Shown here: positions 1 to 33,231 of the stretch, one piece after another | Layout of the letters: every line of letters begins with the position of its first letter | How positions within the stretch are numbered: the first letter of the stretch is position 1 | Origin: a virus | Taxonomy: Duplodnaviria > Caudoviricetes | Length of the DNA stretch: 64,000 nt | Reading direction: 5' to 3' (one strand) | IMG/VR virus record: IMGVR_UViG_3300020048_003360 | Location: 128,001-192,000 of that record | Notes under the pieces: generated by a model | Database searches by the model: none | What the model saw: the letters and a program-made list of their open reading frames with translations, nothing else | What the model was told of the DNA's origin: nothing | Translations under genes and position numbers: made by a program

Positions 1-646
1 TATCGCGTACTCTACAAGGAAAATTATCATTCCTAAGACCACTTCTTACAGCATGTAAGTTATTACCTCTTGAAGAAGTCCATTGAAGGTTTCTTAGAGC
101 ATAATTTAGCTTATTTCCGTCTCTATGGTTAATAAAACAACAGTAACCAGGATTATCGTTTCTAACAAATGCCCTAGCAAGAAGAATGTGCGTACTAACG
201 CTTCTCCACTTACTCTTATCTGGATCATAAATATTGACGTATGGATACCCATATGGACCTATAGCTTCTTTTAGTGTTCTGCCGGTTTTACGTGACATCA
301 CTAAACCATCTTTATTTATAATAAACCCAGGAAAGCCGGGTATAAGTCTAAAATCGTCTGGATATTCTATTGGTGTTTTTATCACCATTAAATAACCACA
401 CTTAAGACCAATGACTTTTGATCTACACTCGATAAAACTAATTTTTGAAACTTCACTGTATGACAAATCAACTTCATAGTGCGCTATTAATCCTAACCAC
501 CTTTTATTAAGTATCTGGTTAACAGAATCAATTACTATACTTATTAAGTTAGGATCACCATAACAATTGGTTTGATTATTGATATTACAATTACCATCAA
601 AATCAAACATATATTGTTCATTAAGAAATAATTTTTTTAGCTCCAT
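1..646 (-). CDS. Intron-encoded HNH homing endonuclease (NUMOD4/HNH type), 3' end outside window
   Basis: Manually translated from ATG at 646 (GGAG SD upstream): MELKKLFLNEQ...FRLIPGFPGFIINKDGLVMS...GPYGYPYVNIY...STHILLARAFV...INHRDGNKLNYALRNLQWTSSRGNNLHAV. Open to the window edge; not in the ORF track. Confidence 0.88.
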   Translation of the reverse strand, partial: MELKKLFLNEQYMFDFDGNCNINNQTNCYGDPNLISIVIDSVNQILNKRWLGLIAHYEVDLSYSEVSKISFIECRSKVIGLKCGYLMVIKTPIEYPDDFRLIPGFPGFIINKDGLVMSRKTGRTLKEAIGPYGYPYVNIYDPDKSKWRSVSTHILLARAFVRNDNPGYCCFINHRDGNKLNYALRNLQWTSSRGNNLHAVRSGLRNDNFPCRVRD

Positions 647-1612: not shown

Positions 1613-1953
1613 CGGTTTCTTCAATATGGTTCGTTAATCCATACCCGTGCACTAAAGCACTGCTCTAGCTTTCACTAGATGCCGAGACTATATCTTCACC
1701 TACTATTTAAATAGTTTAGGTGTTTCCTATTTCCACCCACTTGGGTGTACTGGCTGATAAAGCCATAGTCGTTGAACGTTTCTCATACTCTTTGAGGTTA
1801 GAGACTTCGCTGCTGATTGCCCATTGTACTATCTATTTCTTTTCAAACTATCGCATCTATCTTTTCAGATTACGCTGTAGTGAAATAGCTTTAGGGAGTT
1901 CCAGCAATTAAAGAAAATTCAATTAACCATTACTGATTAATCGGACCATAATA
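1613..1953 (-). mobile_element. Group I intron 1 (ORF-less, ~341 nt) in vRNAP beta gene
   Basis: P AATTGCTGGAACTC (~1896-1909), Q GGGCAATCAGCAGCGAAG (1805-1822), R ACGTTCAACGACTA (1766-1779), S AAGATATAGTCT (1685-1696). Terminal G at 1613; splicing gives SDMDD|PKRVNF. The 5' splice site could be 3 nt earlier. Confidence 0.92.
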
Positions 1954-4900
1954 ATCATCCATATCACTACCTGGTGCATTTAGTGCTGACGTACTCAATA
2001 GAGCAGTGGCACCACTTTCACCTACTGTATATCCCTTAGTCATACCTCTCAAATTAGTAAACTGTGGATCAGCACTGGTAAATGTATTTATAGCTACATC
2101 ACTACTATCTACAGTGGCCTCAGAAATAGTACCCATGTCATTTTTATGGTAGAGTCTAGTGCGTTTTGTCATACTGCGACTATTACGACCACCAGTACCA
2201 CTATAGGTAACAGCTTCAGTTTCTTTTAGATTCTGAATTGGATTAATATCATTTACAGTTACTACTGCCGGATCCTGACGTAGAGACATCCAAACTGCAT
2301 ACGGATTTAACTCAATTTGCTTATTACCCTTACCTGGTTTGGCATTATGCGCTCTAATTGCTTTAACCATTTCTGTATAGACTACACCAGCTACTCTTTC
2401 ATATCCTTTAATACGCATATGGCTGGGATCTAATTCATCTGGATGTTCTTCCGTTAACAGTAGTTCACAACTACGGATTAATAATCCATGGAATGTAGTG
2501 GGTTCTTTCATTTCCCGCAATAGTTCTTTAGTAATTGGATCAATAAACATCTGATACATCAGGTCTATTTCACGCAAATACTTAGTACTAGCACCATCTG
2601 TTTCTAATACATTCAAATAGACACTGGGTTTATCAAAGTCATATACACCATAGTCAATAATTGCTTTATGGTATTCATTGAATCCAGCCAGTATAATTGA
2701 TGCCTTCCTATCGTCTTTAGAAAATACTAGAGTCTCATCACTGAATACTAAAGAATATTCGTGTGATTCTAAATTCACTCTAGTGCCGGTATTCACACGT
2801 CTAGGCACCACACCCAGCAGCTTAATTAACCTACTCAAACCTAACTCATATCCTAAGATAATTCCAATCGGAATCTCTCTACCCATTACCTTAAGTTCAG
2901 CATGATCTACAGGTGCCTTCTTAGCATCTAGACCTAATAGATCTTCAATAGAGCAGAGATCTACCAAATCACCATTATTGCCAGTATATAATGCACCATC
3001 TGAATCCATTACTAAATAAATGTTAGTACCTAATGGACCAATGCCTTTTGTACTAGTAGTGGTATTTAAACCGACTATAATAGCACCATCTTTTTCATAT
3101 GCTTCAATGGCTTCTTTACCATATAGATCTAGACGTTCAGTATGGTCAAAATTAAGAACATATGTAGTTTCTTTACCAGTAATACCACTGTTAGCAGTAA
3201 AGCCCCTAAAGTTTTGAGCCAGTGAATTATACACTCTAGGTGCAGTAAATTGATTATCAAATACATTACCAGTATAGAGTTTAGTAATTGTTAGATTTGT
3301 ATTATCTAAACCCAATACAGTAATATTATTTTTTAACCATTGACAATAGTCATTTACTTTCTTATCACTCCTACTAATAAATGTTTTAGAGTAATAACTA
3401 GTAAGAGCTACGGTATCTGGAGATACCTTTCGTATAGGAAGGTCACCACGTTGCCTTCGTAACTTATACTTAACTCCATTAGACGTGTAAGTGCCGTCAC
3501 TACCAATTACCGGTAACTTATACCTCATTATAGAAGGCATACCTTCTACTGGTTTTACTTTGACAGTATAAAGTTCATAATCGCCCATTACGTCTTCTAC
3601 TACTTCTTTATCATATCCAGTTAATATAACTCCAGCATTCTGAATACTCACTACCATACCAGCAATATCTTTTTCTAATACATTAGAAATGTATTTTTTA
3701 TCAAAGTCATGTAAACTACTCTTTAGCATGCTCTTATCGATAACTGTAGGTATGTCTTTAAAACTATGTGATGATTCTATTTTTAAAGACTCTGGATTTA
3801 CATCAATAAACTTATCTAGAGTTTCCTTTCCATTTGGAGCTACAATACTACGATATGTTTTAGATAGTTCATTGAGTTTTTTATACTCACTAGCTGACAT
3901 CATCCCCATATCTGCCAGTCTATCACATACTCGTAATACACCATCTTCTAGTGTAGGCGCATCTCCTACTATTACTATATCTTCTATTTTATCTCCATCA
4001 TCATTCATGTCACCGTGGTGATTTATAGAGATAGTTTCTAACTCAGATAATTCAGCTTCTATTTCCTTATCTAACTCATCATCAGCAGTAATAGTTTCGT
4101 CTACATCTACTTCAGTTGTATAATCTATTTCCTCACTGCTATCGTCAGTAATCTCCTGACCACTACTTTGAGCAATTATTGCCTTATCTATATCCTTAGC
4201 TATAGTAGTACTATTATTTACTTCTGGTATAGTTACATCTTGTTTTATTACAGTAGTTTTAATAGTATCTATCTTAGATTTCTTAGCTAACTTAGCTGCA
4301 GCTGTTCTCACCTGGAATAGAGCCATCATAAGACGCAGGAAACGCATCTGTAGTTGCTTTGGATCAATACCCTTAGTGTTGGCATCGGGATTGAGTTCTA
4401 GCTCTTCCTTAGTGGCTACACGCCATCTATTTAGCCTACCTAAGTTTACTACAAAAAACTTACCTGACTCTTGAAAAATAATATTTACTTTATCTAATTT
4501 ATCATCTGGTACATTTGCTAATGCAGATTCTTTTCTATCCGGACCTACCCACTTCCACAACTCTAATAGACTTAGACTTTCAGGACTATTAAAGATCTTT
4601 ATGGTTTTTTGAGTAATGCCTTTACTGGCTAATCTTAAGTCAGCAATACTGGGTAAAATATTTGGTAGATTATACAAAATAAACTGATTTCTGTCAACTT
4701 GACCCGCTACTTCGGCTATTTTCTTCCATACAGCAGTTTCAGTATTCCACCATTTATAGTAAGCAGTATAATAAGACCGTAAATATCTATAAAGTCTAGG
4801 AATTACTCCATAATTAAATATAACCAGAGTATTAGCATCTTTACACGCATTAGTTAATTCTCGCATAATCCGAAATCTACGATGCTTAATGTGGTACGTA

Positions 4901-5175
4901 CGTATCATAGTGCCAGACGCTACTGACAATGGTCTGGGGTTACCTTTATTATCTCCATTTTCGATTACATGATCCATCATAATTGGACGAGTAATATTCC
5001 TAAAAATAAACTCATCAGAAGCAGGTCCTACTTCTACTGGAGATACTGTAACATAATGCAATATTGATTGTTTGGGTAATGATAATAGTTCTAAGTTTGT
5101 TAACGGAGGCGACAGCAATTGACCAGCCACCCGTATGCCGTATTTTAAATAAAACTGTTGAAAGTACATACTCAT
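1954..5175 (-). CDS. Virion RNA polymerase beta subunit (phiKZ gp178-like), exon 1 (1074 aa)
   Basis: RRQRGDLPIRK, RIKGYER, VTYSGTGGRNSRSM, GTISEATVDSSDV motifs; sits next to beta' and a gp181-like gene as in phiKZ. Confidence 0.9.
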
Positions 5176-27033: not shown

Positions 27034-27723
27034 CTATAAAGTATTTTGTAAATGAGCACTCTGTAATAGTACTTTCAATGTCTGAGTACTCTCTACACCA
27101 CCAGCTAGATGTTCCACACCACTAATACTAAAACCACCAGTATGTGATATGTGTTGATTGGACGCATTAAAAGCCTTTGAGTCACCACCTCTAATTTTCA
27201 TTAGTTCAGTTAGAGTATCTTCTAAATTCAATGATGCCAAAATTTGTACTTCAGGATAAGATATTTTACTACCTTTTGATTTTCCTGTAGGTTGACCAGT
27301 CATATCGTCTACTGACTTATTATCTTCTGGAATAGATATCTTCTTAACTAATAATTGAGCTTGTCTACGTAATGGTAGATCTACAATTAAGTATGGTATT
27401 GGTGTTAAGTACGCTGGACTATCACTATCAGAATCTTTCATCCAGATACGTTCAAAGAAGTTATGTCCTAATTCTTTAGCTAATTCTAAATTTCTCTCTA
27501 CAGATAATTTATCTTCACTTAAATTAGGTGCTATTAATGCTAATTTAATATCACCATTCTTTAGAGACAACATAAAATCATTAAACTGTTTGTCAGACAT
27601 ACTGGCAAATAAAGTTTTATATATTTCTTGATTAGCTGTAGTTTTATTTTCTGAATTTGGTAATAATGCACCTATATACTTCAATATATAGGCTTCAGTT
27701 ATTTTTCTCTTATCGTTAGCCAT
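27034..27723 (-). CDS. Virion RNA polymerase beta subunit C-terminal part (phiKZ gp149-like)
   Basis: RRQAQLLVKK..DMTGQPTGKSKGSKISYPEVQIL..LTELMKIRGGD aligns with the beta C-terminal TQQP..G..R.GEME..L.E..TvKsDD pattern. Confidence 0.8.
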   Translation of the reverse strand: MANDKRKITEAYILKYIGALLPNSENKTTANQEIYKTLFASMSDKQFNDFMLSLKNGDIKLALIAPNLSEDKLSVERNLELAKELGHNFFERIWMKDSDSDSPAYLTPIPYLIVDLPLRRQAQLLVKKISIPEDNKSVDDMTGQPTGKSKGSKISYPEVQILASLNLEDTLTELMKIRGGDSKAFNASNQHISHTGGFSISGVEHLAGGVESTQTLKVLLQSAHLQNTL

Positions 27724-27776
27724 ATCTATTCCTTTTTAAATATACCTATACTGAGCTGACCCACCCTCATCCATTA

Positions 27777-28016
27777 TTACTCTGGATTCACTTTAGTAAA
27801 AATACGTCCTTTTTTACCTTCATTAGAAGTTATTAATTTCCACTGTCTCATTTTTGCAGTTTGTGTATTAACTTTAGTAATAGATATTTTCCATACTTCA
27901 GCTGCTTGAGTAGGTGTAAATTGATCAGGAAGTAAAGACAGACGATATTGTCGTATAGCATCAGCATCTTTAAATGACTTAAGGTTACATTTAGCATAAT
28001 GGGCCTTTATTGTCAT
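27777..28016 (-). CDS. Small basic, possibly winged-HTH protein
   Basis: TPTQAAEVWKISITKVNTQTAKMRQWKLI pattern. Confidence 0.55.
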   Translation of the reverse strand: MTIKAHYAKCNLKSFKDADAIRQYRLSLLPDQFTPTQAAEVWKISITKVNTQTAKMRQWKLITSNEGKKGRIFTKVNPE

Positions 28017-28025
28017 AATTTTATC

Positions 28026-28205
28026 CTACTGCAAGATAGTAACTTGATTCATCGCATACGCATTATCTACATCTCTATCATCAACCTTTTCTATTACTAT
28101 TAAATTAGGTGTATTTGTACCCAATATATTAGTGAGCATTGCTGGTAATAGTTTTTTCAAATGACAGTAATAATGATTACCATCCTGTAGTTTAATAATA
28201 CGCAT
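28026..28205 (-). CDS. Small hypothetical protein (59 aa)
   Basis: Manually found ORF MRIIKLQDGNHYY... with AAGGA SD. Confidence 0.5.
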   Translation of the reverse strand: MRIIKLQDGNHYYCHLKKLLPAMLTNILGTNTPNLIVIEKVDDRDVDNAYAMNQVTILQ

Positions 28206-28247
28206 AATTTATTCCTTACTTATTAAATAAATAAAAAAAAAATAAAT

Positions 28248-28283
28248 TACCCTATCAGTCATATTATTTTGACTGATAGGGTA
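28248..28283 (-). terminator. Terminator ending the tRNA/ncRNA island
   Basis: TACCCTATCAGTC/GACTGATAGGGTA stem followed by a U tract on the minus strand. Confidence 0.75.
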
Positions 28284-28611
28284 GTTAAGTAATGGGTGGG
28301 GTGTGATACGTTAGATTTTAATCATACCATAGCGACCGCATCAAAAGTTTCCAAAGCTTTATTGGAAGAACACCCCATTGATAATTTACATCCCATAGAA
28401 CACTACACAAAATATATTGCATAATGCTCTACAGGTTGCACACTAGTAGTTATGGGAGTACTAACGCCATAAAACTAATGACAGCTTGCAGTTATATTAA
28501 GAATCACTTAATATAACTACCGTACGGTTATGAAGAGTGATTAGTTCTTCTACATTCACCGTAAGTTAATCCTCACATTATCCCATAAAGTACGTATGGA
28601 ATGTTTGGAAT

Positions 28612-28644
28612 TGGTGGGCCCGCCCGGACTCGAACCGGGGACCA
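28612..28644 (-). pseudogene. Orphan 3' half of a tRNA (T arm + acceptor strand + CCA)
   Basis: TGGTC CCCGG TTCGAGT CCGGG CGGGCCC A CCA; no D or anticodon arm upstream. Confidence 0.75.
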
Positions 28645-28650
28645 AATTAT

Positions 28651-28818
28651 TTAAATTTCTACGTCAGCTCTTACAAGTGGTCTATTCATAAATTGTTCTG
28701 CAACTAATCTATGTTCATAAACATAACCTTCCATTGCTCCAGATCTTACAGCTTCTGGATGTTCAGGATTATAAACCATTCTATATTCATTAACAATACG
28801 TAATTCTTTTTTAGCCAT
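28651..28818 (-). pseudogene. Truncated HNH-endonuclease-like ORF
   Basis: YRMVYNPEHP...GYVYEHRLVAEQFMNRPL stops before the HH.D/N catalytic part; start refined to MAKKE. Confidence 0.65.
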
Positions 28819-28840
28819 TTTTATAATCCTGTTAAGTGTT

Positions 28841-28916
28841 TGGTGGGACCGGAAGGAGTTGAACCTTACATTCTTGGCTTTATGAGAACCCTGCTTCACC
28901 GTTAAGCTACAGTCCC
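28841..28916 (-). tRNA. tRNA with CAU anticodon (Met or Ile2)
   Basis: GGGACTG acceptor, loop CTCATAA, TTCAACT T loop, CCA end. Confidence 0.85.
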
Positions 28917-28942
28917 AATTTACTACATTTAACTTCTCAAAA

Positions 28943-29460
28943 ATTGTGCTCCTTAAGATATTTCTATCTATACTGTCATTCTAAATCAAGAGCATTATTT
29001 AGAATCTAGACTATGTTATCACCATATATTTGGTAGCTCTTACTCACCACACAGGTGGCTTGCTCAAATACTTAGGTATTCCGTTTCTAGTCTCTACACC
29101 TTCCTGTTATTCCTTAACGACTGTACCACTTCGATCCGTGGCCTTGGTAGGAATACTACGAGTTCAGGCTGGCTCGGCGCTGGCATATTAATAACTACCT
29201 TAGAACAGTCTTACTGCCGATGATTTTTCTTCGGAAAACCATGAAACCATCATCTGCTTCAGATACTTATTAACTTAGCTTTTGCCGAATTTACGGAAAT
29301 ACTACTAGCGGGTTTCCCTTGATACGTTACGCCTTTTCGCGTTCGTCTTACTATACCTGATTCCATTAAGGACTCACAAACATTTCTGCTTGCTCTTCGG
29401 CGATTATCCTATCCAGGTTATCGAAAACTGACTACCATATCATTTTTCGCTAGTGACCTA
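28943..29460 (-). ncRNA. Orphan group-I-intron-like RNA A
   Basis: Shares GGTCACTAGCGAAAAATG, CGCTAGTAGTATTTCCGTAAATTCGGC, GAAGGTGTAGAGACTAG..ACGGAAT and ATAGTC with the tRNA-Leu intron, but has no tRNA exons. Confidence 0.8.
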
Positions 29461-29476
29461 TTACGACACTTTATTC

Positions 29477-29743
29477 TCACACTATATTAAACCTACCATC
29501 AAACAATAGGTTTTCATTTTGTAATCTGATGTCTCCAGAGACGTTCAAATAGTAGGCATCCTTAACCACGGAGCCGTCTTCTAGATAAACATTTATCCTT
29601 AAGACATGATTCCCAAGCGTTTCCTTTATGTCCAGAAACACTCTATCCTTTACAGTAACTCTGGTAGTTACTTTAAGGTCTTCACTTTCTCCAATAGTGA
29701 AGTCATTACCAATAAAATACCTAATCATTTGCACCTCCATCAA
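29477..29743 (-). CDS. Hypothetical 88-aa protein between the two orphan ribozyme-like RNAs
   Basis: ORF with GAGGAG/GGAGG SD-like motifs. Confidence 0.65.
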   Translation of the reverse strand: MMEVQMIRYFIGNDFTIGESEDLKVTTRVTVKDRVFLDIKETLGNHVLRINVYLEDGSVVKDAYYLNVSGDIRLQNENLLFDGRFNIV

Positions 29744-29760
29744 TTAACTCCTCATTAAAG

Positions 29761-30320
29761 ATTGTGCACCTTAGAATGTTTCCATCCATTTAGTCATTTA
29801 TGGTCAAGTGTATTACCATAAATCTAGACTATTATGCTCCTTCATTAACTGTGGTTCATATTAGAGCTTCTGACAGCCATATGGTATTTTAGGTACATCA
29901 GAATTTAAGTACCACAACTACTAATCTACTAGACAACTAACTTAGGATTCCGTTTTTATAATCACACCTTCCTGTCGTGTCTTTGGAGGTACTTCTATCC
30001 TCAGTACTTTATGGGGTCTTAGTCCCACTACAGGCTTGGCTCAGTATCAACATATTCTTTAAAATAGGCTCTTCATTACATTCGGGCAACCCTGCTAGAA
30101 CTAACCGAATGAATTCTATTTACTCAAACCCGTGGCAGGATTTAACTTCGATTTGAGTACCGTCTCTTAAAGAACTTAGTTTTTACTGATTTTACGGAAA
30201 CTGATATCTTTGATTAGATCATTGTGTCATTTAGAATGGTAGGTAAAGGAATTAAGTTTTTACACTACCTTTTTAACCTATTTTATCCATAGCCACGACT
30301 ACAGTGCTAATCTAAAGTAA
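29761..30320 (-). ncRNA. Orphan group-I-intron-like RNA B (divergent P7)
   Basis: GTTTCCGTAAAATC (P3/P), TACTGAGCCAAGCC (Q), CAGGAAGGTGTGATTATAAAAACGGAAT (R), ATAATAGTCTAG (S); 3' tail homologous to RNA A. Confidence 0.7.
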
Positions 30321-30505
30321 CCAGTGCGGTACTATGCTAGGTGCATAATTGTATAACTCTGCCTAGCGCAAAGCGTGTGTCCTTTACTACTAAAGTTCAC
30401 GGGAGTAAATGAAGCTATGGACTTCATTCAGGGATTTTTCTTCTGATTATGCTCATTGCCGAAGATCCACCCGTCGCACGGTCGTATACCCATGTCCATA
30501 GCATG

Positions 30506-30661
30506 GGTTCCCTACTTGCTGAAAATCTTTCTACACGAGTAATCTATCACTCGCTTATCGTTTATCATGTAAGACAGTCCCACATAATTACATCCTGATT
30601 CGGTTTCTATCTTGGAGTAAATAACTTCTCCAGATATAAGGAAAATAATGAGTAGATACAT
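30506..30661 (-). CDS. Small hypothetical protein (51 aa)
   Basis: MYLLIIFLISGEVIYSK... with TAAGGAG SD; manually found. Confidence 0.55.
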
Positions 30662-30678
30662 TTATCTCCTTACTTAAA

Positions 30679-30728
30679 TGGCCTCCCGTAGTGGACTCGA
30701 ACCACTGACCCCAATCTTAGAAGGATTG
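30679..30728 (-). pseudogene. Partial tRNA-Arg(UCU): anticodon arm, T arm, acceptor 3' strand
   Basis: CAATC CTTCTAA GATTG GGGTC AGTGG TTCGAGT CCACT ACGGGAG G CCA; no D arm or dedicated 5' strand. Confidence 0.7.
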
Positions 30729-30734
30729 TTTAAT

Positions 30735-30816
30735 TGGCGGGACAGGTGCGACTCGAACGCACATACTCCAATTACGCGGTTAACGACGGCTTAGAAGGCC
30801 GTTGCGATACTGCCCC
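30735..30816 (-). tRNA. Atypical D-armless tRNA-like RNA, UCU anticodon, long variable region
   Basis: GGGGCAG-TATCGCA-ACGGC CTTCTAA GCCGT-23 nt-GTGCG TTCGAGT CGCAC-CTGTCCC G CCA. Confidence 0.7.
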
Positions 30817-30826
30817 AATTATACTC

Positions 30827-31078
30827 TTACCTAGCAGACGCCATACCCATGGTGGCTCTATGGATAGGTACTACATTGTCGCCGCTCTTCCTCGCCAACT
30901 CTCCATAGCAATCAGCTCTGAGCAACTCTTTCAGTCGCTCAATTGTGTCCTTATCGGAAGTTACGACCAAGTGCAAAGAAGCTGTATCATCGATGTTAGA
31001 GTCAATTACAGCTAACTGCACTGTTTCTTGCTTCGTTGAGTGTGTGGGCGCAAACATCCGTGTAAACCAGTTAAACAT
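30827..31078 (-). CDS. Hypothetical protein
   Basis: 83-aa ORF with AGGA SD between tRNA genes. Confidence 0.65.
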   Translation of the reverse strand: MFNWFTRMFAPTHSTKQETVQLAVIDSNIDDTASLHLVVTSDKDTIERLKELLRADCYGELARKSGDNVVPIHRATMGMASAR

Positions 31079-31114
31079 TTTATTCGTCCTATTATTTAGT
31101 TGATCGATGTCTTA

Positions 31115-31387
31115 CTACTGAGTACTCTCTACAGATTCACTACTAACTTCCTTTGCTGAGATCATCCATTCAAGAAAGCTATGATACACACTCATTGCTT
31201 CATTTTCATCAACCGGCACTCTAATTCCTCTCACATAGAAGCCATCTTCAGCAATTCTAAGGACAGGTTCACCAGTTTTAGCATGGTGAAAGATTACAGA
31301 ATTAGGATATAACTCTGCAGCAGTCATAGCCACTTCTGAATGAACTTCGTTAATTGCCACTGCATCCACATTTTCTTCCATGATCAT
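31115..31387 (-). CDS. Hypothetical protein
   Basis: Start refined (MIMEENV) because the longer ORF overlaps tRNA-Thr; VLRIAEDGFYVRG motif. Confidence 0.65.
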   Translation of the reverse strand: MIMEENVDAVAINEVHSEVAMTAAELYPNSVIFHHAKTGEPVLRIAEDGFYVRGIRVPVDENEAMSVYHSFLEWMISAKEVSSESVESTQ

Positions 31388-31401
31388 TCCTTTAAATAAG
31401 A

Positions 31402-31476
31402 TGGTGCCCAAGGTGGAAGTCGAACACCAGATCCCCGCATTACAAGTGCGGTGCATTACCATTCTGCTACAAGGGC
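31402..31476 (-). tRNA. tRNA-Thr(UGU)
   Basis: GCCCTTG acceptor, CCGCA CTTGTAA TGCGG anticodon arm, CCA end. Confidence 0.85.
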
Positions 31477-31489
31477 TATTTATTAAATA

Positions 31490-31792
31490 TTAATTTGATT
31501 GACCAATTGCCATATCGACAATATCTTTCAATGTAATATTATCTTTATACATTCCGTATTCATACTCCTCTAATGGAAAATGAATTAAACTAAACGCCTT
31601 ACTTAGCTTTTCAGGATCTGAAATAACAACAGTTTCTTCTAGCTTAACTTGAGTTTCAATATTAACAGATTCCAAATGAATCTTATTAGTACCAATTATT
31701 TCAACATTTGTTTCAAAAATCTTTTTCATTTCATTTCCTAAATAACCTTTATTCCATAAGGATTTAAAAAGCTCTTGTAATTCCAAGATCAT
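31490..31792 (-). CDS. Hypothetical protein
   Basis: 100-aa ORF with AAGGAG SD. Confidence 0.65.
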   Translation of the reverse strand: MILELQELFKSLWNKGYLGNEMKKIFETNVEIIGTNKIHLESVNIETQVKLEETVVISDPEKLSKAFSLIHFPLEEYEYGMYKDNITLKDIVDMAIGQSN

Positions 31793-31809
31793 TTTGTTCT
31801 CCTTATGGA

Positions 31810-31842
31810 AATCCGGCGCTCTACCAACTGAGCTATTGAGGA
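31810..31842 (-). pseudogene. Orphan 5' half of a tRNA
   Basis: TCCTCAA TA GCTC AGTTGGTA GAGC G CCGGA TT, then directly the SD of the next ORF; no matching 3' half nearby. Confidence 0.7.
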
Positions 31843-31852
31843 TTATTGTAAC

Positions 31853-32381
31853 TGGTGGGGGTAATCGGAGTCGAACCGATATACCTTGCGGTGAGGGATT
31901 TTACTTACCACTTCGGTTTTCACCGCCAGTCTTAGCCCTTGCGGGTTATCTTCTGTTCGTGGTCTGGACTATGCTATCGCCATATTACGATTTATCACCT
32001 TGACTTGACTTTACAAGTGATAGTTTATAGTCAACCGTAACGTAGGCATTCCGTCTCTAGTCTCTACACCTTCCTAATCATTAAAGCGGAGTTCTCGCTG
32101 TCTTTCGACGGATATTTCCAACATTAACAGTTTAGGCTTGGCTCGGCGTTGGCATACACTCATTCGTATCTTTTCAGGAACCTATCGTTTCGGTATTACC
32201 AACCTGCAAAGAATTTTAACTATTGAGTGTGAAGCGTTCGCCGAATTTACGGAAATACTACTAGCGTCTTTCGATTGAGTCATTACGCCAAGACAGGAAA
32301 AGCCCGCCGAGACTACCAACTCATTTTTCGCTAGTGACCCATTAAAGAGTCCCTTGTGTCTACCAATTTCACCATACCCCC
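31853..32381 (-). tRNA. tRNA-Leu(UAA) interrupted by a group I intron
   Basis: Exons 32348-32381 and 31853-31903 join into an 85-nt cloverleaf: GGGGGTA/TACCCCC acceptor, AGGGA CT|TAAAA TCCCT, long variable arm, CCA. Confidence 0.92.
31904..32347 (-). mobile_element. Group I intron (444 nt, ORF-less) after U33 of tRNA-Leu
   Basis: Exon GACU pairs with IGS GGUC (U.G splice pair); P7 GAGACTA/TAGTCC; ends CGGT-GAAA-ACCG..GTAAG|. Confidence 0.9.
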
Positions 32382-32410
32382 TCAAATTGAAAAGTTCTAG
32401 TTACAACTAC

Positions 32411-32448
32411 ATATAGGTAATATATGTTTATAAAAAGTTTCAATCGTT
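32411..32448 (-). promoter_or_regulatory. Early promoter driving the tRNA island
   Basis: TTTTTATAAACATATATTACCTATATG; TATATTAC at 32417-32424, ~35 nt above tRNA-Leu. Confidence 0.75.
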
Positions 32449-32487
32449 GTATTTCCACACAGTATCTATATATCAAATAAAAAAACT

Positions 32488-33231
32488 CTATTGAGAATTA
32501 AGTATTGTGGCCAGTGCTCTAGCTTGATTAACTGGCGTACTACTAAAACAATCCGATAATATATTATTATTCTCACTAGCTTTGACTCGTAACTCATCCA
32601 TTAAGTCTGGATGTAAGCTAGTCCAAATAGTCCATAGCCTTAAGTATTCTTGCCATAAATCTATTTTAGTGTCTAATGGCGGTTTACCTTTACCTAACCG
32701 CCAGTTATTACTACCTGGACTATGGGCTTTAACATCACACTGGTAGTGACTCTCTAGATATCTACCATCTGGCATTATCGCATATAGCGCACTAAAACGT
32801 TTATCTCCCACACTAGAGCACTCATACCCACCTTTACGCTGATACGTTACTGTTGGATTGGTATTCTTTATTCCATATTTTATTAAATATACTGGCTTAT
32901 TTAGTTGTTTCATATAGTCCATCATGTGTTTAGTACCATTGGACTTACCATCCCAAAAAACTAATAAAGCGTCAGCAAACTTACCCATTTCGGTATTTCT
33001 AATGTATCCTGCTTTCTTACCTAAGCCAGTCCAGTTAGCTGGAAATTCATATACCTTAATATTATTTAAAAGACCATATCTGTATCCTAGTTTATCGGCA
33101 CCAGGTGCCATACCAGAAACAATAGCAGTGTCTCTATTTATTACTTTTATTATATTGTTTATTGTGTCACTTAATAATTGATAGTTAGTAAATGTTCTAG
33201 TACCAGCTACAATTAATTTATATTCATCCAT
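32488..33231 (-). CDS. SLOG (YspA/DUF2493-like) domain fused to a NADAR-like domain
   Basis: N-terminus LIVAGTR..IVSGMAPGAD..AGYIRN..FWDGKSNGT.HM; C-terminus YECSSVGDKRFSALYA..ESHYQCDVK. Confidence 0.65.
   Translation of the reverse strand: MDEYKLIVAGTRTFTNYQLLSDTINNIIKVINRDTAIVSGMAPGADKLGYRYGLLNNIKVYEFPANWTGLGKKAGYIRNTEMGKFADALLVFWDGKSNGTKHMMDYMKQLNKPVYLIKYGIKNTNPTVTYQRKGGYECSSVGDKRFSALYAIMPDGRYLESHYQCDVKAHSPGSNNWRLGKGKPPLDTKIDLWQEYLRLWTIWTSLHPDLMDELRVKASENNNILSDCFSSTPVNQARALATILNSQ

Follow-up and report, generated by a model that had tools for sequence, protein, structure and literature searches.

The tRNA cluster and its three intron-type RNAs

The window, by which the whole 64-kb stretch analysed here is meant, comprises bases 128001-192000 of a 208-kb IMG/VR virus record that is 78% complete, and it encodes pieces of a multisubunit RNA polymerase of the jumbo-phage kind. 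RNA A, the structured RNA considered here, belongs to a minus-strand cluster, made up of tRNA genes and small ORFs, that is ended by a strong terminator at 28283-28248. No terminator is found between RNA A and the tRNA-Met gene, the strong one being located only at the end of the cluster, and RNA A is probably co-transcribed with both tRNA-Met and an 88-aa ORF. The principal features of the locus are the following:

28841-28916, minus strand: tRNA-Met(CAU), called by ARAGORN, starting 35 nt downstream of the omega G of RNA A
28919-28951, minus strand: 3' flank of RNA A, homologous to the flank of RNA B in local alignment and not tRNA-like
28952-29459, minus strand: body of RNA A, beginning with the guide-like sequence and ending with omega G, the terminal G; 508 bases with an IC3 group I fold
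29477-29743, minus strand: 88-aa ORF that matches no known family, placed between RNAs B and A, with its stop codon 17 nt before the guide
29770-30510, minus strand: RNA B, an exon-less, fast-evolving sister copy with its omega G at 29770
31853-32381, minus strand: RNA C, the tRNA-Leu(UAA) gene, interrupted after U33 by a 444-nt group I intron, called by ARAGORN with introns allowed

The DNA occurs in sequencing runs of aquatic metagenomes, the host being uncultured, and the sequence of the locus is identical in four DNA sequencing runs of one study, with no variation among runs. For the 88-aa ORF, no relatives were found in IMG/VR, a family search matched no family, and the scores of an Atlas comparison were all below 0.8.

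Fragments of genes also occur in the cluster. A 58-aa remnant of an HNH endonuclease (28651-28827, minus strand; PHROG 10730, E 3e-5) is situated between tRNA-Met and an orphan tRNA 3' half, and three orphan tRNA pieces on the minus strand were left uncalled by ARAGORN: a 5' half with acceptor, D arm and the start of the anticodon stem (31850-31810), an Arg(UCU)-like piece extending from the anticodon arm through CCA (30725-30676), and a piece made up of T arm, acceptor and CCA (28650-28612). The acceptor strands of the three do not match one another. A split or permuted tRNA was considered on account of a CUCCCGU at about 30411 that matches the acceptor strand of the 30725-30676 piece, and was rejected, one 7-mer match in 15 kb being the chance expectation. 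Elsewhere in the window, the gene for the RNA polymerase beta subunit is split by a standard group I intron (1663-1966, minus strand; Rfam 91.7 bits), with ORFs at 1930-5175, 698-1624 and 2-646 (minus strand). Positions 3-1050 of the PHROG 3148 profile are found upstream of the intron and 1051-1354 downstream, and an HNH endonuclease ORF comes after them. Two further full introns are located at genome positions 127114-127465 and 86570-86871.

BLAST finds exactly three copies of the intron-type RNA in the genome, namely A, B and C. RNA A is an ORF-less, exon-less IC3 group I RNA and a paralogue of the intron in the phage's own tRNA-Leu(UAA), that is, of RNA C, whose class is 'Leu.2Ug' in the naming of Williams 2020 (bioRxiv 10.1101/2020.01.27.920355). 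BLAST matches RNA A to RNA C with an E-value of 1.6e-11 and to IMG/VR phage tRNA-Leu introns with an E-value of about 1e-18, and two stretches are identical in A and C, one of 19 nt from the guide to P2 and one of 26 nt across P2-P3-P4. In the tree, RNA A falls inside the U33-type tRNA-intron clade (clade support 100/100) on a terminal branch of 0.37, twice the median, and the branch of RNA B measures 2.01. The minus strand of RNA A contains no ORF of 40 aa or more. At the Rfam gathering score (50), Intron_gpI (RF00028) gives no match on RNA A, and the E-value mode was needed to pick it up (28979-29338, minus strand; 33.5 bits, E 7.8e-6). The genuine tRNA-Leu intron in the window has no Intron_gpI match even at E up to 10; because a genuine intron from the same stretch is missed altogether, the model must under-score this subfamily. 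Neither GIR1 nor any other Rfam family besides Intron_gpI gave a match at E up to 10 in 27500-33000.

Fold of RNA A and state of its core

RNA A has in common with the Leu.2Ug introns homologous sequence and a P2-P9 fold, an identical J6/7-P7 block (GGUGUAGAGACUAG), the GGUC guide, a terminal G after UAAG, the GAAA loops and the receptor motifs of P8 and P5. The introns of Anabaena and plastid tRNA-Leu (Leu.3Ug) and of Azoarcus tRNA-Ile are their classical relatives. The P3, P7 and IGS-like guide given in the preliminary description are all present: UUUCCGU (29299-29293) pairs with ACGGAAU (29084-29078) at 6 of 7 positions, AGACUA (29093-29088) pairs with UAGUCU (29013-29008) at 6 of 6, and the guide reads AGGUCAC (29459-29453). 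The parts of the molecule, from its 5' end, are these:

29453-29459, minus strand: guide-like AGGUCAC, homologous by alignment to GGGUCAC of the tRNA-Leu intron, without a cis partner
29305-29453, minus strand: P2 domain, including a long lineage-specific insert (helix table)
29453-29448 with 29310-29305, minus strand: P2, 6/6 paired
29442-29436 with 29326-29320, minus strand: P2.1, 7/7 paired
29318-29310, minus strand: GGG-GAAA-CCC hairpin in the P2 domain (helix table)
29293-29299, minus strand: 5' strand of P3, with its partner at 29084-29078 (helix table, Rfam alignment)
29173-29289, minus strand: P4 (29289-29284 with 29178-29173, 6/6 paired) enclosing the P5 arm, which has a CUAAG/UAUG receptor-like motif
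29103-29168, minus strand: P6 (CCUG/CAGG, 4/4 paired) with an insert
29088-29093, minus strand: 5' strand of P7, AGACUA, with its partner at 29013-29008; the preceding J6/7, GGUGUAG, is identical to that of the family
29022-29076, minus strand: P8 with the 11-nt receptor motif CCUAAG...UAUGG, fold z -1.85
28956-29005, minus strand: derived 3' domain common only to A and B, in place of the family's P9.0 (ACCAC/GUGGU)
29005-28997 with 28986-28978, minus strand: P9 within the 3' domain, 9/9 paired, with a 10-nt loop, L9
28969-28956, minus strand: P9a hairpin with a GAAA loop, 5/5 paired, preceded by AAUGAC
28952, minus strand: presumed omega G, the last base of UUAAG before a G, aligned with GUAAG before a U in the tRNA-Leu intron

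Only about 2 of the 60 helix pairs are left unpaired, in spite of the long terminal branch. The core from P3 to P8 is present, including the P3/P7 pseudoknot (P3 6/7, P4 6/6, P6 4/4, P7 6/6, and P8), and in the helix table P5a and P5b are paired throughout (7/7 and 6/6). Two GAAA tetraloop-receptor motif pairs occur, 29318-29310 with 29076/29026 (L2-P8) and 28969-28956 with 29279/29188 (L9-P5), and by reference to the Azoarcus structure we take them to form the corresponding contacts in RNA A. The whole RNA folds with a z of only -1.65, folding by domain being the more informative measure: the P2 domain reaches -2.70 (1 of 200 shuffles as good) and the P5 arm -2.71, which puts the folding of the private P2 and P5 extensions ahead of 99% of shuffles. 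A pairing of L9 with the 3' splice-site region was also considered (-9.3 kcal/mol and p 0.003 in A, -4.6 kcal/mol and p 0.04 in B, with one covarying pair); since equally good partners exist elsewhere in A, a specific contact of this kind remains an idea.

How intact is this core? The preliminary description had called it an intact catalytic core, which holds for the helices, P7 and J6/7 and fails for the 19 family-invariant columns that differ, the two changed positions of the J4/5-J5/4/P4-end region and the replaced P9.0. In an alignment of 7 exon-flanked and 4 exon-less relatives, 107 columns do not vary; RNA A keeps 88 of them (82%) and RNA B 68, against 92-100% in real members by leave-one-out, in which 0-9 columns are changed. 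Thirteen of the departures of RNA A fall in P9.0/P9, the region that in both A and B has been replaced with a new domain, and two fall in the J4/5-J5/4/P4-end region, at 29283 (A, G in the family) and 29180 (G, A in the family). J5/4 is AA in 20 of 20 relatives, counting the cyanobacterial-type outgroup and the exon-less ones, and has become AG in A and GA in B; RNA A, in addition, no longer forms the last P4 pair. In the work of Strobel and colleagues and in the Azoarcus crystal structures, recognition of the P1 G.U wobble reportedly involves the J5/4 adenines. RNA A has also lost the UUUA that makes up the P10 strand in the tRNA-Leu intron.

RNA A thus differs from the Leu.2Ug introns in having no tRNA exons or P1, in the AG instead of AA at J5/4, in the lost P4 pair, in the P9/L9 domain that replaces P9.0 and in a 3' flank that is not tRNA. 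To judge from the alignment, the guanosine-site side of the molecule (J6/7, P7) is untouched, whereas both splice-site docking elements are altered, a combination that would fit an RNA no longer splicing conventionally.

Missing exons and a guide without a partner

The absence of a GACU-like 5' exon immediately upstream, noted previously, is borne out: no G[AG][CU]U occurs within 16 nt of the guide. In all five related Leu introns a GACU precedes the guide by 9-11 nt, with duplexes of -4.2 to -7.2 kcal/mol compared with -2.9 for the best in RNA A, and real family members form a tight P1 hairpin with a loop of 5-7 nt. RNA A has no canonical P1 with a U.G at the 5' splice site. A cis P1 formed with distant upstream sequence was the case that the preliminary description had set against its own reading; an energy scan of 537 nt upstream gave no partner better than shuffles, as did a scan of 174 nt downstream, in a test of low power in which the positive controls, real P1 helices, give p 0.1-0.6. 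The positional criterion, that is the spacing of GACU, is relied on for this reason. Candidate P10-like pairings, of the A leader GUGUC with GAGCAC in the flank and of the B leader with its flank (8 of 9 bp), are not significant (p 0.2-0.5), and no significant partner was found for the flank or the guide of RNA A.

The surroundings do not supply exons either. No relics of tRNA-Leu exons were found in the flanks of RNA A, where local alignments are no better than shuffles, nor is there a split tRNA at RNA A, ARAGORN with introns calling just tRNA-Leu (31853-32381) and tRNA-Met (28841-28916). The flanks consist of the end of the 88-aa ORF and the 35-nt spacer before tRNA-Met, and removal of RNA A would leave no continuous gene. 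RNA A is probably not a splicing intron at its present location.

It is nevertheless conceivable, at a very low probability, that RNA A still splices in cis between cryptic exons, with a P1 formed by the distant, wobble-rich GGUUU that occupies 29493-29489, within the final codons of the 88-aa ORF, and with a 3' exon beginning at 28951. The GGUUU lies 29 nt upstream and would pair with AGGUC through one G-C, one U-A and three wobble pairs; a similar GGUUU stands upstream of one exon-less relative in another phage (L039), and in about half of these relatives a G[AG][CU]U(U) of some kind occurs in the 45 nt upstream. However, this pairing is very weak and at chance level, all real members have the tight P1 hairpin described above, the wobble receptor is altered in RNA A, and the joined exons would give no meaningful reading frame.

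Alternatively, RNA A may act in trans, its free AGGUC binding GACU(U) elsewhere, for example in the anticodon loop of tRNA-Leu(UAA), where GACU is followed by UAA, and cutting or splicing there. GGUC is retained in RNA A without a cis partner and lost in B, every base of AGGUC is complementary to GACUU in the loop of the spliced tRNA-Leu, and the base before GGUC is A in both of the independent exon-less lineages that were found without selection for the guide and G in 5 of 5 tRNA-borne introns. The IC3 ribozyme of Azoarcus binds a 3-bp substrate in trans with nanomolar affinity (PMC4201826) and can be made to trans-splice (PMC3895272). Such engineered ribozymes resemble RNA A in their IC3 core and in a short free guide for a substrate of 3-4 nt, but they were built in the laboratory, with the wobble receptor left intact and a 3' exon supplied by design. 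We know of no natural trans-acting group I ribozyme. Several properties of RNA A speak against the trans-acting reading, which we regard as unlikely: the J5/4 adenines for recognition of the P1 wobble have become AG next to the lost P4 pair, no P10 strand is available for UAAA, the 3' exon on offer is the 35-nt spacer with tRNA-Met, so that the spliced product would be meaningless, and four retained bases beside a conserved P2 are weak evidence.

Of the earlier proposal that RNA A captures a 5' exon in trans, the group I fold, the homology of the guide to GGUC and the chemical possibility of pairing with GACU stand, while J5/4, P10 and the 3' exon disfavour trans-splicing. The fuller proposal, in which RNA A is a natural trans ribozyme whose AGGUC recognises the GACU-U of tRNA-Leu(UAA) from the host, from a rival phage or from the phage itself and cuts or re-splices it, is distinctly improbable; if it were true, phage tRNA clusters would be equipped with a weapon or repair tool in the form of a ribozyme that arose from the intron of their own tRNA.

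RNA B, exon-less relatives and a possible role for RNA A

RNA A and RNA B alone have the layout 3' strand of P7, P9, L9, AAUGAC and P9a, and in both, as in no other relative, UAAG is followed by G[A/U]GCACAAU. Their flanks are homologous over about 27 nt (p about 0.0004; the local alignment scores 15, shuffled sequences 6.8 on average), and the flank of RNA B leads into the 88-aa ORF, through its ribosome-binding site to its start. The flank homology, together with the continuation of the B flank into the ORF, implies that the common ancestor of A and B was already without a tRNA 3' exon. Two other accounts of the flank were dismissed. A repeated promoter or regulatory motif is not indicated, the sequence occurring after A and B only and nowhere else in the genome; a short coding exon, for which three of four substitutions are third-position in one frame and an indel measures 3 nt, is not significant, and an ORF leader explains the flank better because the homology continues to the ORF start.

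Two homologous ribozymes with the same 3' tail thus bracket one small ORF, an arrangement reminiscent of engineered permuted intron-exon constructs, in which the 3' splice site of B would back-splice to a 5' splice site before A and circularise the 88-aa ORF. This can be given hardly any credence: RNA A lacks a 5' splice site and P1, the B flank has no complement in the leader of A, and each copy contains a whole core instead of complementary halves.

A and B are now 56% identical. Of 49 helix pairs compared between them, 27 are identical, 16 compensatory, 1 one-sided and 3-4 broken, whereas controls with shifted partners leave just 18-23 of 48 paired. The stems covary while the single-stranded L9, AAUGAC, GAAA loop and flank are conserved. 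Polarised by outgroups, the changes lie mostly on the side of B, and Tajima-type counts of private changes give 46 for A and 87 for B (outgroup C, p 4e-4), in the same direction with seven outgroups; the sisterhood of A and B has weak tree support (40/86). Sisters have had the same time to change, and the helices of B are themselves under constraint; that A has evolved more slowly speaks for purifying selection on A instead of neutral drift, and we infer that RNA A has been under selection in its exon-less state since the A/B split. Four patterns were used to search IMG/VR, JGI metagenomes and 185,579 genomes for an orthologue of RNA A or of the A/B-type 3' domain, and none was found, the matches being due to chance or to a locus with an A-like guide (L038); the case for selection is therefore that of the single A-B comparison. 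In a related phage contig, a 105-nt fragment alone of an RNA B-like sequence (L011:3261-3366, minus strand; 78% identical) lies by a tRNA 3' fragment, and such RNA pieces do, then, persist as debris in these clusters.

It is possible, though we hold it to be somewhat doubtful, that RNA A is a functionless relic, a copy of the tRNA-Leu intron made by duplication or recombination, now without its exons and slowly decaying. The absence of exons, P1 and a guide partner would be explained, as would the 19 changed invariant columns (real members have 0-9), the loss of the J5/4 AA and the last P4 pair, and the branch of twice the median length; the sister B is far more altered, tRNA fragments and the HNH remnant are close by, no orthologue was found, and related phage records have no extra exon-less copies, each containing just the tRNA-borne intron. 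On the other hand, the helices of RNA A are nearly all intact and its private extensions fold well, 16 pairs are compensated between A and B, and A has evolved at a slower rate than B, although the helices of B have been kept as well. It would also be unusual for a phage to keep about 1.3 kb of junk until the peripheral similarity of A and B had nearly vanished. If RNA A is a relic, it shows the order in which an intron dies, with the splice-site docking elements lost first and the helices persisting.

Exon-less RNAs of this type are found in other phages. A search for relatives by the shared J6/7-P7 motif and the guide retrieved many phage tRNA-Leu introns and eight exon-less relatives (L013, L019, L021, L022, L037, L038, L039 and L041), which are intergenic and lie just upstream of unrelated ORFs. 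They keep the J5/4 AA and P9.0 and carry a 5' AGGUC(G/A)CUAG, AGGUC standing in place of the GGGUC of tRNA-borne introns. At their 3' end a hairpin with the loop ACUU(AA) closes on the terminal G, its stem covarying (CAUU/AAUG, CGUU/AACG, UCUU/AAGA), and is followed by a ribosome-binding site and the unrelated ORFs; P7 is compensated in one of the relatives. The sequence ACU-UAA in this hairpin is that of the spliced tRNA-Leu junction, and the hairpin may be a mimic of the ligated exons that pairs with the guide. Six of the loci form a clade of their own apart from RNA A, and L038 and L041 branch elsewhere in the tree, from which it follows that exons were lost several times. Exon-less IC3 RNAs therefore form a maintained class in phages. 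Like RNA A, these loci derive from tRNA-Leu-type introns, are without exons, are intergenic upstream of a gene and carry the guide AGGUC; unlike them, RNA A has neither J5/4 AA nor P9.0 nor the ACUU(AA) hairpin, its 3' end reading UUAAG followed by GAGCACAAU, with no ACUU hairpin closing on the terminal G. As RNA A is without their hairpin and outside their clade, the exon-less class supports the plausibility of a similar fate and not membership.

What could the use of such an RNA be? The explanation that we favour, as a tentative choice at close to an even chance, is that RNA A is a retained cis-acting ribozyme or structured module. A and B would come from an ancestor that was already without the tRNA 3' exon, and selection would afterwards have kept the fold, with RNA A most likely acting in cis on the long transcript of the tRNA cluster. 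It would have kept the guanosine site (P7, J6/7) and the terminal G while its splice-site docking elements were rebuilt, and the rebuilding of the 3' docking region with a conserved flank points to an action on its own 3' end or to a stable boundary. In the first of these roles RNA A would cut its own 3' end, between 28952 and 28951, by hydrolysis independent of a 5' exon, which is a known activity of group I introns; in the second it would serve as a compact folded block between the message of the 88-aa ORF and the tRNA-Met precursor. Any catalytic or stabilising role is proposed from the fold and the pattern of change. Against the retained module, the 19 changed invariant columns, junctions included, would also fit relaxed constraint, the tRNA fragments and HNH remnant that litter the surroundings of RNA A indicate a region that tolerates junk, and a cut before tRNA-Met would be unneeded, since RNase P trims tRNA leaders anyway. 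RNA A is either a ribozyme in a new use or a slowly dying relic.

To our knowledge, group I ribozymes in nature are almost only introns, with GIR1 as the one accepted exception. GIR1 showed that the group I fold can evolve a new reaction, and an exon-less group I fold under selection would, if true, be a second route beside it, in a phage tRNA cluster that offers a tractable setting with the ancestral intron on hand for comparison. RNA A and the exon-less relatives of other phages together suggest that tRNA-Leu introns have repeatedly come free of the genes that carried them. The GIR1 lariat-capping ribozyme is itself group I-derived and non-splicing and shapes the 5' end of a downstream mRNA (PMC2219692). 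It resembles RNA A in its group I-derived core, in having no conventional P1, in its position before a gene and in its remodelled periphery and junctions; it differs in residing in a twin-ribozyme intron of eukaryotic rDNA, and its branching chemistry is not indicated for RNA A.

Two observations concern the periphery of these RNAs. The P5 extension of RNA A (29198-29267, minus strand) contains a 70-nt module that is 87% identical to the P6 extension of another phage's tRNA-Leu intron (L004:737-805), and the presence of the same module in different helices suggests shuffling of peripheral domains. In addition, several related introns and exon-less ribozymes carry tRNA-like or T-arm-like hairpins (GGUUCGAAUCC and similar) in their peripheral loops, as at L011 (about 2300-2420, minus strand) and in the P6/P8 inserts of L037 and L039.
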